From the IMG/VR virus record IMGVR_UViG_2687453424_000001: a stretch of 64,000 nt of DNA. One strand, 5' to 3'. Position numbers and translations under genes: made by a program. This DNA comes from a virus (taxonomy: Duplodnaviria > Heunggongvirae > Uroviricota > Caudoviricetes). Positions 27,460 through 30,440 of the stretch are shown piece by piece (position 1 is the first letter of the stretch; every line of letters begins with the position of its first letter). The notes beneath the pieces are model-generated. The model had not been told where the DNA came from and ran no database searches. It saw nothing but the letters and a program-made list of their open reading frames with translations.

Positions 27460-30440
27460 GCTACCATGGAGCTTTTAAATCATCTATTCCAACTCAGTGT
27501 TGCCTTTGTATATATTCTTGCAGGCTTTTCCCGGTAAATTTCCATCCATTGGCCAAAAAAAGCCTTGCCACAGTTCTTTGATTTTGCACCCCTAAAACCC
27601 CGTATGGCTCAAAGCCATAGCCCCATCCCTGGGGCAAGGATGGTTTTCACAGGCTGGTCAGGGAAGTCTGGCAAATCCGTCCTGGTTTGAAGAGTTGGTG
27701 TCACTTGGTGCTCTGATGTGTCATATGTTCAAGGCTCTACGCAGGTTGTGGAGCTGGCAGCAGTCGTCAGAGCATTTTTACGCCAGCCAGACAAGCCCTT
27801 AAATATTGTCTCAGCTTCTCAGTATGTAGTTGGCATAGTACAATGGGCATAACATGCGCTGCTGAGAGAGATTTCAAATGCTTGTTACCCTCTTTGTATG
27901 GTGTCAACCCTCGCAGTCTGTATTCACTCGATCTCTGGCAGACAGATGTTGCTCATTTCCCAGCTTTTGGCTGACTGAAGTAAGTTCATGTTTCCTTAGA
28001 TACTCACTCTAACCCCCTCTTTGCCAGCCCACATGCTGGAGAAAAGGCCTGCCATGTTTGTCACCATTTGACACAGGCTTTTGCCTTTATGGGAACGCCA
28101 AGCCATGTGAAAACTGATAGTGGCCCGGCATACACTTTACGGGACGTAAAGTTGCTGCATTTTTGTCTGCCTGGGGCATTGAACATATCACAGGCATCCC
28201 ACATAACCCCTGTCGTGGTTTAAGCCCAGGCCGTAAATTAGAACCACGCAGTCTACTTCCCCCCCAACTTTCTTCCCTCCGCTCCTGGAGGGATGGGGAA
28301 GAGAATCGAAAGAATGTAACTCCCACAGGTTGAGGTAAGAATAGTTTAGTACCTAAGGTATAACACAAATCACTACTGCTACCACCATTAATAATAATGA
28401 TAAAGGAAATAACAACGGAAGAGAATACAACTGCTCACCAAATGGTACCTCACCCCCACCCAGCAGTGATCCAGCCCTTCCGGGTACTCTCAGTTCTACA
28501 TCCTGGGCATGACGTGCTGTGGTACGGAATACCTCTTTGGCTAGTTTGGGTCAGGTGTCCTGTCCCTGCTTCCTCCCGGCTTCTCCTCCTCCCTGGCAGA
28601 GCAGGAGACTCACAAAGTCCTTGGTCAGGGTAAACATTCTGACCAGCAACCAAAAACATCGGCTTTATCAGTATTATCCCCAGGCCAAAAGTCAAAACCA
28701 CAGTGCTGCACCAGCTGCTAAGAAGGAGAAAAAATGACTGCTACTGCTAAACCAGGAAACCCCTCTGGGCAAGCGCTTATTGAACGTGCCCATGGGACCC
28801 GCAAAAATATGTTATAAAACAAGAAGGGGGAAGCGAGGGCTATAACTGCCCCCAAGAACGCATAGCAAAAGCACTGTATGCCTTGAATTTTTTTTAAATT
28901 GCTGGCAAGATGACCAGCCGCTGGTGGAAAAACATTTTGGGTGACCAGCCTTAGAAGCAATTCATGGTCAAGTGCCAGTTATGATAAAAAACTTAGAATC
29001 CAGTCAATGGGAAGGGCCATACCCTTTAATAACTTGGGGGAAGGGTTATGCTTGTGTCTCCACAGGTACCCGACATCGATGCATTCCTGCTCGATGGGTC
29101 CGACCGGCACTCAGAACCCCTGAACCATAGGTCTGATCATGTGCATGCCGATTCATCGGTGGTGTGGAACTGACTCCTGGGAATTATACAAGATTGGCTA
29201 CTCGCTCCTCGGAGAACCAGCAAGTGGGACTACCACTTACACCAGTGCTTACTGCGCTGGGGTAACACATCCATTAGCTATAGATTGAGAACATCTTGAT
29301 CCAGAGCTGTTGCCACTAGAAAATAGGCAAGAGCAGAGTATACTGTGTTTAGCTTGTCCAGGCAGTGGGCACTGTGCTTGGGTCTTACGTGAGTGCCGCT
29401 GCCGACGGGGATGATATTGTGTCTCGCGCTTTAGGGAAGGATGGTGCAAGATCTGCCACTGCAATCAGGAGGCAGAGTCTAGTGCCAATGTGATAAGCCT
29501 GGTATGTGGGAAGTCACACTTGGTTCCTGAAATCTGGGAAGTCTGGTGACCAACTGGGAAAGAACCAAGCGTATCTGTCAAAAATTATTTCAGTGGAAAT
29601 TATATAAAAACCAAAAATGAGGTTTATCGTGACATGTTGCATGCATTTCTGTAATTGTTCTATCAAATGCCAGAGCCATTTGGGAATCGGAGTAGCTAGT
29701 GCTCAAGCTTTAGCAAGATTGAATAAGTTAGGATGTTGACTTGCTAAACAAACTAATGCTACAGAATCCTCTCTCTCCCCTTTGCTCACTGATGTCGACT
29801 CTATTAGGCATGTGACTTTAAAAAATAGGGCAGCAATTGATTTTCTCCTCTTAGCACATGGACATACGTGTGAAGTTCTGGAAGGAATGTGTTGCATGAA
29901 TTTGTCAGACCATTCAGATCCATACATGAAAGTATCCGTAAATTAAAAGATAGTGTGATGAAGTTAAGGGAAGATGATACAGATTGGTTATCATCACATT
30001 TCTCCGGCTGGGGTATAACTGGGTGGCTATTGACTTTGGTTAAGGGAGGATTGATCTTTTCGCTTTCTCTCTTTGCCATCATATGTGTCGTACCTTGCTT
30101 GTTACAATGTATGCAGCAAATGTTATCCCAAGCTTTTGAAAAACGTGTGTATACTGCATTGATAAAACAAGAAGTGGGAACTGTGAGGGTTGGAATGCAT
30201 CAAAACAGTCAGAGACCATGACAAGGAGGAACTACAGCAGGCAATTAGAAGTGACCTGTCCCTGACTGGTACTGGATAGAGGATGTTGATGAGAAAAATC
30301 AGATAGACTTTTTGCCCAGTCGTGAATGTAACCGCAAGGCAGACACAGATGTGCTTAGCTAATTGCTTGGATGCATACAAATATCATGCAATCCTTGTAA
30401 TAAACGATCCAGCTTGTACTGGTCTCCACGCCTCCCCATC
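27460..30440 (+). mobile_element. 5'-truncated endogenous retrovirus remnant: pol (RNaseH, integrase), env transmembrane subunit, short 3' LTR; degenerate
   Basis: RNaseH-like MAQSHSPIPGARMVFTGWSGKSGKSV...VQGSTQVVELAAVVRAF (~27580-27880); integrase IWQTDVAHF...VKTDSGPAYTLRDVK...GALNISQASHITP (27900-28204), continuing after a 0.55 kb insertion as [17 protein letters not shown]... (28751-29110); env [32 protein letters not shown] (~29820-29910) with downstream membrane-anchor-like stretch; AATAAA at ~30398 in LTR-like sequence; multiple stops. Confidence 0.65.
28205..28750 (+). repeat. ~0.55 kb interspersed repeat, copy 3, inserted into the retroviral integrase ORF with a short target-site duplication
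   Basis: Integrase reading frame ...HITP | insertion | [11 protein letters not shown]...; flanks CATAACCCCT(G) on the left and (A)AACCCCTCTGGG on the right share AACCCC(T), consistent with a 4-7 bp target-site duplication; removing the insert restores ~HNP-SGQA. Confidence 0.7.

Follow-up and report, generated by a model that had tools for sequence, protein, structure and literature searches.

What is the 0.55-kb repeat that splits a retroviral integrase gene in the bird-derived part of IMG/VR record IMGVR_UViG_2687453424_000001, a stretch of 64,000 nucleotides filed as a tailed phage (Caudoviricetes) and called the window here, and did it arrive there as a mobile unit? The original prediction, made from the letters alone, described a repeat, an interrupted integrase, a flanking duplication and four copies, all of which are present, and left the class of the unit unclear between a solo long terminal repeat (LTR) of another endogenous retrovirus (ERV) family and a non-autonomous element. 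Here, we show using external copies, profile searches, rejoining of the interrupted gene and comparison with a crane provirus that the unit is an LTR with complete termini, that its family makes 5-bp target-site duplications and that it splits the integrase precisely. With high confidence we read it as the solo LTR of a class III (ERV-L-like, env-less) avian ERV of the hitchcock-related group (TguLTR5a/d/e). The locus is an ordinary nested insertion of an already known element type.

The identification of the unit starts from copies outside the window. The motif CCACRCAGCCGCTCRCTCRCTC, from the more divergent copies, finds 99 stretches of bird host DNA in three Joint Genome Institute (JGI) metagenome samples, nearly all of them holding units of 0.5-0.7 kb that start TGT(C/T)(G/A)TGGTTTAACCCCAGC, end AAACCAG(G/C)ACA and stand solo. 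A profile hidden Markov model was built from 40 independent complete external solo LTRs, with external sequences only, and run against the window with nhmmer; all four window copies score far above chance (Table 1). Because the profile matches the unit from end to end, the unit is a whole element bounded by termini of its own, not a stretch from inside a longer repeat, and together with its TG...CA ends this bears out the solo-LTR option of the original prediction and the view that the unit was once mobile. Narrower baits found nothing: exact 22-24-mers of the conserved LTR centre have no match in the collections viral_contigs or metagenome_contigs, a 20-mer of the 5' block has none in viral_contigs, and a spurious open reading frame (ORF) of 78 amino acids inside the LTR has no homologue in the protein collection. 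A self-search of the 99 metagenome loci for LTR pairs gave none that was usable and one weak second copy in one locus.

Is the interruption of the integrase gene precise? When 28211-28763 (the unit with one flanking repeat) is removed before translation, the flanks form one open integrase frame across the junction, and the rejoined sequence matches Pfam rve with an E value of 3e-19 spanning the junction and aligns unbroken to the integrase of mouse mammary tumour virus (MMTV), with the junction facing MMTV HVTGIPYNPQGQAIVERTH. The element thus went in precisely, at a point in the catalytic core that lies immediately ahead of the Glu of the D,D-35-E triad. The interrupted frame had been read as ending in 'HITP'; the interruption is real, and these residues come from the neighbouring frame owing to a 1-bp frameshift just upstream of the junction. 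Among solved structures the MMTV integrase is the best relative of the host integrase (122 bits), and that of Rous sarcoma virus (RSV) scores 76 bits. The provirus that received the insert is a degraded one of class II (MMTV-like, betaretrovirus-like) and is unrelated to the inserted LTR. It resembles MMTV-like class II ERVs in its integrase, in RNase H upstream and in an env transmembrane (TM) region with CX6CC downstream, and differs from them in being heavily degraded, with stops and frameshifts. The degraded env occupies 29100-30250, where the TM region with CX6CC is of the gamma type and a weak Pfam TLV_coat match is found; the MMTV-like pol and the CX6CC env together indicate a betaretrovirus-like pol combined with a gamma-type env.

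The continuity of the rejoined gene also bears on the idea that the unit is nothing discrete but part of the interior of a longer repeat, the product of a segmental duplication or an artefact of scaffolding or assembly. The bird sequence is a fragmented draft scaffold rich in gaps (48% of the window consists of N, in eight large runs), and copy 2 sits in a rearranged composite. The junctions of copy 1, however, lie within gap-free sequence (the piece 27076-31816), and the same boundaries recur, with duplications, in three window copies and in dozens of unrelated contigs, so we regard an artefact of this kind as barely credible.

The unit that splits the integrase (copy 1) measures 548 bp, beginning at 28211 with TGTCGTGG and ending at 28758; across 28200-28770 the letters run ...CACATAACCCC/TGTCGTGGTTTAAGCCC...GCTAAACCAGGA/AACCCCTCTGGGCAAG..., the slashes marking its borders. 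An earlier span of 28205-28750 had thus captured the element with shifted ends, 28205 being the first base of the AACCCC flank. The sense strand of copies 1-3 is the minus strand of the window, because the external LTRs match the crane provirus described below in the opposite orientation, and this corrects the orientation given before. Read in sense, copy 1 starts T(G)TCCTGGTTT and ends ...GGGCTTAAACCACGACA. All copies share the start TGTC(G/C)TGG, and the terminal inverted repeat is an imperfect 8 bp, TGTCSTGG. At the other end, ...GCTGAACCCAGGACA and the consensus LTR end ...CCCAGGACA are present in copies 2 and 3, and copy 1 ends ...CCAGGAA without the C of the consensus ...CCAGGACA. In terms of outermost bases, copy 3 is TG...CA, copy 2 is TT...CA and copy 1 is TG...(A)A, with one end mutated. 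Aligned by eye, TATA-like motifs read TATATAA in copy 3 and CATAAAA in the crane provirus, and an NNTAAA hexamer, likewise read by eye, precedes CTTATCTCAACC as AGTAAA in the crane provirus and ACTAAA in copy 1. These TATA-like and poly(A)-like motifs may once have driven transcription of the element.

How long is the target-site duplication? Integration by class I elements duplicates 4 bp, by class II elements 6 bp and by class III (ERV-L) elements 5 bp. Both flanks of copy 1 share AACCCC (28205-28210 and 28758-28763), and the A at 28758 may be counted either as the LTR end or as a sixth duplicated base. We therefore turn to the family and survey external copies, of which 28 were independent and strictly defined; a flank moved by 10 bp served as control. 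Exact 5-mers flank 4 of the 28 (10 of the 28 within one mismatch), whereas exact duplications of 4, 6 or 7 bp number zero among the same 28, as do those in the shifted control; a looser screen of external loci gives six independent exact 5-mers. Duplications are therefore seen at other copies too, namely at copy 3 and at four to six external loci with exact 5-mers against none in the controls, and the family rule is a 5-bp target-site duplication. Because of this rule, the duplication of copy 1 is most likely ACCCC, the LTR end having lost the C of its terminal CA. Taken alone, copy 1 may also fit a 4-bp duplication CCCC (CA to AA by one mutation) or one of 6 bp. The earlier reading of AACCCC, possibly up to 7 bp, was thus right about the shared flank and too long for the family. 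A short interspersed nuclear element (SINE) or another non-LTR retroposon was also considered and rejected, given the missing tail, the TG...CA ends, the fixed 5-bp duplication and the lack of an Rfam tRNA or 7SL match. An element like a terminal-repeat retrotransposon in miniature (TRIM) was likewise considered and rejected.

The other window copies supply two further insertion sites. BLAST of the region against the window returns three more copies (12446-12955, 13923-14479 and, partial and on the opposite strand, 48714-48978) that are about 80% identical, and a multiple alignment of the window copies has a mean column identity of 83%. They had been placed at 12432-12962, 13925-14488 and 48690-48962; all three exist, with ends refined as in Table 1, and copy 4 is the most divergent. 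Copies 2 and 3 interrupt one CR1 element, and a CR1 paralogue elsewhere in the window, 88-93% identical to it, is uninterrupted and so served as a proxy for the unfilled site. Comparison with this paralogue shows that copy 3 was inserted exactly, between CTTTT (13918-13922) and CTTTC (14479-14483). Copy 2 belongs to a composite (12444-13375) that reads in sense as about 8 bases like an LTR start, an integrase fragment, an 85-bp duplicate of the LTR middle and the 3' LTR; four unmatched bases (12958-12961) separate this duplicate from copy 2, and the far end of the composite, TCAGGAAA(C), resembles an LTR terminus. Its flanks, CCTTT and CGTTC, are each one base off the CCTTC of the CR1 paralogue. 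The composite looks like a single proviral insertion that has lost nearly all of its interior. Its integrase fragment is up to 87% identical at the amino-acid level to many bird integrases, including that of the crane provirus.

Which retrovirus does the LTR belong to? The contig with the best match to the integrase fragment (L001, from the crane Grus japonensis) is matched twice by the external LTRs, once on either side of pol. Its order is 5' LTR, primer-binding site, gag-like ORF, protease and reverse transcriptase, RNase H, integrase zinc finger and core, polypurine tract and 3' LTR, so that the proposed check for full-length relatives is answered by paired related LTRs with a primer-binding site and a polypurine tract. 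The 5' LTR (4985-5398) reads TGTCCTGGTTCTGGC...GGGGCTAAACCACGTCA and is followed by the primer-binding site TGGCGCCCAACGTGGGGC, which we take to be the complement of the 3' end of tRNA-Lys1,2; the purine tract AATAAGGGGTGGATAA precedes the 3' LTR, which begins at 11021. Over the 146 bp that precede the contig end, the 3' LTR is 94% identical to its 5' partner, and both match the LTR profile; they are of a related type and of another subfamily than the window copies. The LTR type is thereby linked with an ERV-L-like gag-pro-pol having a tRNA-Lys1,2-type primer-binding site. No Pfam match to env was obtained in this provirus, in which just 445 bp separate the integrase stop from the 3' LTR, and none of its ORFs, including those downstream of integrase, matches dUTPase at a Pfam E value of 0.001 or less.

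Compared with solved structures, the reverse transcriptase of the crane provirus is closest to the foamy-virus protease-reverse transcriptase (138 bits), followed by those of murine leukaemia virus and xenotropic murine leukaemia virus-related virus (MLV/XMRV, 107 bits) and of human immunodeficiency virus (HIV, 60 bits). Its integrase is nearest to that of prototype foamy virus (PFV, 56 bits); HIV and the simian virus SIV score about 24 bits, and MMTV and RSV are absent from the best 60 matches. Foamy-like enzymes and a 5-bp duplication together place the element in class III as a probable ERV-L-like retrovirus. With the ERV-L or class III elements (HERV-L, MuERV-L; related to spumaviruses) the window family shares its 5-bp duplication, and the crane provirus shares a gag-pro-pol without env and a reverse transcriptase and integrase nearest to the foamy-virus enzymes. 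Mammalian ERV-L elements differ from it in carrying a dUTPase in pol; this feature is not universal in class III, so its lack leaves the assignment standing. HERV-L is named for tRNA-Leu, and the primer-binding site of the crane provirus differs from it in this respect.

Could the unit instead be a solo LTR of class II (ERVK or betaretrovirus-like) with a 6-bp duplication? The full AACCCC is identical at both flanks, and betaretroviruses also use a primer-binding site for tRNA-Lys1,2, as found in the crane provirus. Yet among the external copies only 5-bp duplications rise above the control and none of 6 bp occurs, copy 3 shows a 5-bp duplication against its CR1 paralogue, the associated pol is foamy-like and the MMTV match is to the integrase of the host. 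As the published relatives have 5-bp duplications as well (PMC4540587), we consider a class II origin highly improbable.

These published relatives are the 'hitchcock-related' avian LTR retrotransposons TguLTR5a/d/e (Suh et al. 2011, PMC3265382; Suh et al. 2015, PMC4540587), of which about 130,000 copies (TguLTR5d and relatives), with 5-bp direct repeats, have been analysed in 48 bird genomes (Suh et al. 2015, PMC4540587). Like them, the window LTR is 0.5-0.7 kb long, mostly solo and flanked by a 5-bp duplication. A TguLTR5d copy in their supplement (S1), bale_00119, reads ACTGA/TGTCCTGGTTTCAGC...GGCTGGGGTAAAACCACAACA/ACTGA (PMC4540587). The window LTR agrees with TguLTR5d in its sense termini, TGTCCTGG(G/T)TT(C)AGC... 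to ...GGCTGGGG(C/T)TAAACCAC(A/G)ACA, and in colinear blocks (GACAGGACAnnTGACCCAAACT...TATTCCATACCA...GTCATGC; TAAACTGTnCTTATCTCAACC; GAGCGGCTGCGTGGT) as well as a TATA-like site, whereas copies 1 and 2 carry the variant GTCTACTTCC of the block GCCGCTCGCTCACTC. Membership of TguLTR5d itself would call for some 80% identity or more over most of the length, and the value found is about 59% against a single copy, bale_00119. By sequence, the window LTR is best described as a relative inside the hitchcock-related group that belongs to a different subfamily from TguLTR5d.

Does this LTR type belong to a coding retrovirus at all? It might instead flank a non-autonomous retrotransposon that has a non-coding interior and depends for its movement on ERV-L proteins acting in trans. 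The original 'Hitchcock' element of chicken is treated in this way, and it is entered as 'undefined' in one survey of chicken repeats (PMC4992247). Essentially all copies in the approximately 100 external loci are solo; in old families, however, proviruses are as a rule outnumbered by solo LTRs, so this excess lends no support to a non-coding interior. Passerine proviruses of a related pol family have another LTR type, but in the crane provirus LTRs of the type in question flank a coding gag-pro-pol with primer-binding site and polypurine tract, and in the window composite an LTR copy and an integrase fragment of that family lie together in the same sense. On balance, we find a non-autonomous element unlikely and keep to the LTR of an ERV-L-like provirus.

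Several observations nonetheless weigh against the assignment to a class III, hitchcock-related ERV. One end of copy 1 has no canonical CA (...AGGAA), which makes the length of its own duplication ambiguous, and its TATA-like box is degenerate. Overall identity of the window copies is about 59% to bale_00119, the one TguLTR5d copy compared, and about 53-56% to the crane LTR, yet in both comparisons the conserved blocks follow the same order. A full-length provirus with this exact LTR subfamily was not recovered, and in the crane provirus the spacer between the CA of the LTR and the primer-binding site (within 5399-5423) is 7 nt (GTCTTTT) against the usual 2-3 nt. Its placement in class III follows from best hits to solved structures. 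Moreover, passerine proviruses with the same pol (L002 from Hirundo and L102 from Zosterops) bear a different LTR, TGTTGGGG/TGTTGAGG..., so the evidence for pairing the exact subfamily with this type of pol is the crane provirus together with the composite in the window. In these two proviruses (at 10740-10760 in L002 and 10660-10680 in L102) the polypurine tract GGGGTGGATAA, shared with the crane provirus, stands beside an unrelated-looking LTR that starts TGTTG(G/A)GG, which suggests LTR turnover within one pol lineage. A correctly placed matching LTR was found neither in L002 and L102 nor in L103 (Pitangus) and L104 (Willisornis), the last of which reaches a gap.

How might the locus have arisen? 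An ERV-L-like provirus, using its own integrase, would have entered the integrase gene of the older resident MMTV-like provirus in antisense, and repair of the staggered 5-bp cut would have produced the ACCCC duplication. Homologous recombination between its two LTRs would then have removed the interior and left one LTR between the duplicated 5-mers; we infer this route, from full provirus to solo LTR, for copy 1. The nesting orders the two elements in time, the class II provirus first and the ERV-L LTR later, and the insertion adds one inactivating lesion to an integrase that was already dead. As a textbook nested retroelement insertion, the locus is of importance mainly for annotation. Hitchcock-related LTR insertions serve as presence/absence phylogenetic markers in birds (PMC4540587), and this locus could serve likewise if orthologues were compared.

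One may ask whether bird ERV-L-type integration favours the pol or integrase genes of resident proviruses, or whether the LTR represents an undescribed lineage-specific subfamily; we hold either to be very unlikely. A preference for pol or integrase would draw on two cases in approximately 100 loci that were partly selected via proviral genes, and chance nesting suffices to account for them. Hitchcock-related LTRs show no target-site preference (PMC4540587). The two cases are the window LTR within its class II integrase and a metagenome locus (L056:1899-6177, Ga0065711_1046745) that carries an LTR of the same type (2407-3109), in antisense, at the junction of RNase H and integrase of an ERV-L-like pol of the crane provirus family.

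Table 1. Coordinates of the LTR copies, the interrupted host gene and associated features in the window, with the matches of the external LTR profile.
Feature	Coordinates	Strand	nhmmer match	Model positions	E value	Basis and remarks
Host integrase catalytic core, upstream part	27924..28210	+				LWQTDVAHF...KTDSGPAY; stop codons and frameshift; Pfam rve, MMTV alignment
Left duplication copy, ACCCC	28206..28210	.				Sequence; 5-bp family rule
Solo LTR copy 1	28211..28758	-	28211-28755	5-596	4e-53 (3.6e-53)	Sequence, BLAST, alignment, nhmmer
Right duplication copy, ACCCC	28759..28763	.				Sequence; consensus LTR end
Host integrase, downstream part	28764..29095	+				Catalytic Glu of D,D-35-E and C-terminal domain ...WEGPYPLITWGKGYACV
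LTR copy 2	12444..12957	-	12446-12957	1-594	1e-46 (1.3e-46)	3' LTR of apparent deleted provirus remnant 12444-13375 in CR1
Duplicate of LTR middle, 85 bp	12962-13045					Between copy 2 and integrase fragment
Integrase fragment, ERV-L-like, of the LTR's own family	13046..13366	-				Translation, Pfam rve; upstream of copy 2 in LTR sense
Solo LTR copy 3	13923..14478	-	13923-14478	1-596	4e-64 (3.9e-64)	Inside CR1 element
Partial LTR copy 4	about 48650..48978	+	48687-48978	375-596	1e-23 (1.1e-23)	Only the half that is 3' in LTR sense; ends ...GGGCTAAACCATGACA at 48978
CR1 element	11487-14593					Interrupted by LTR copies 2 and 3
CR1 paralogue	21036-22653					Inverted relative to 11487-14593; uninterrupted

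Finally, the window as a whole consists of two unrelated sequences joined together. Positions 1-10808 are 100% identical to the final 10,808 bp of the record of Escherichia phage vB_EcoP_24B (HM208303.1, 46870-57677, the record end), a Stx2-converting phage of E. coli, and the bird scaffold begins at 10809. The join is neither a chimeric genome nor a horizontal transfer. The phage part holds an ORF of 2,807 amino acids (2279-10702) that is annotated elsewhere as an LPD5/LPD38 domain protein. The bird part contains tails of avian CR1 retroposons and further bird repeats, and Rfam returned no family, tRNA and 7SL included, across it. Beginning 21 bases past the end of the partial LTR copy 4 (48978), a C-rich tandem array (48999-49923) has a period of about 42/83 bp with sub-periods of 11 and 31 bp, the consensus CCCCCAAGTGACCCCCAGACCCACAACTGCCCCCCAAGTGA and 66-72% matches.

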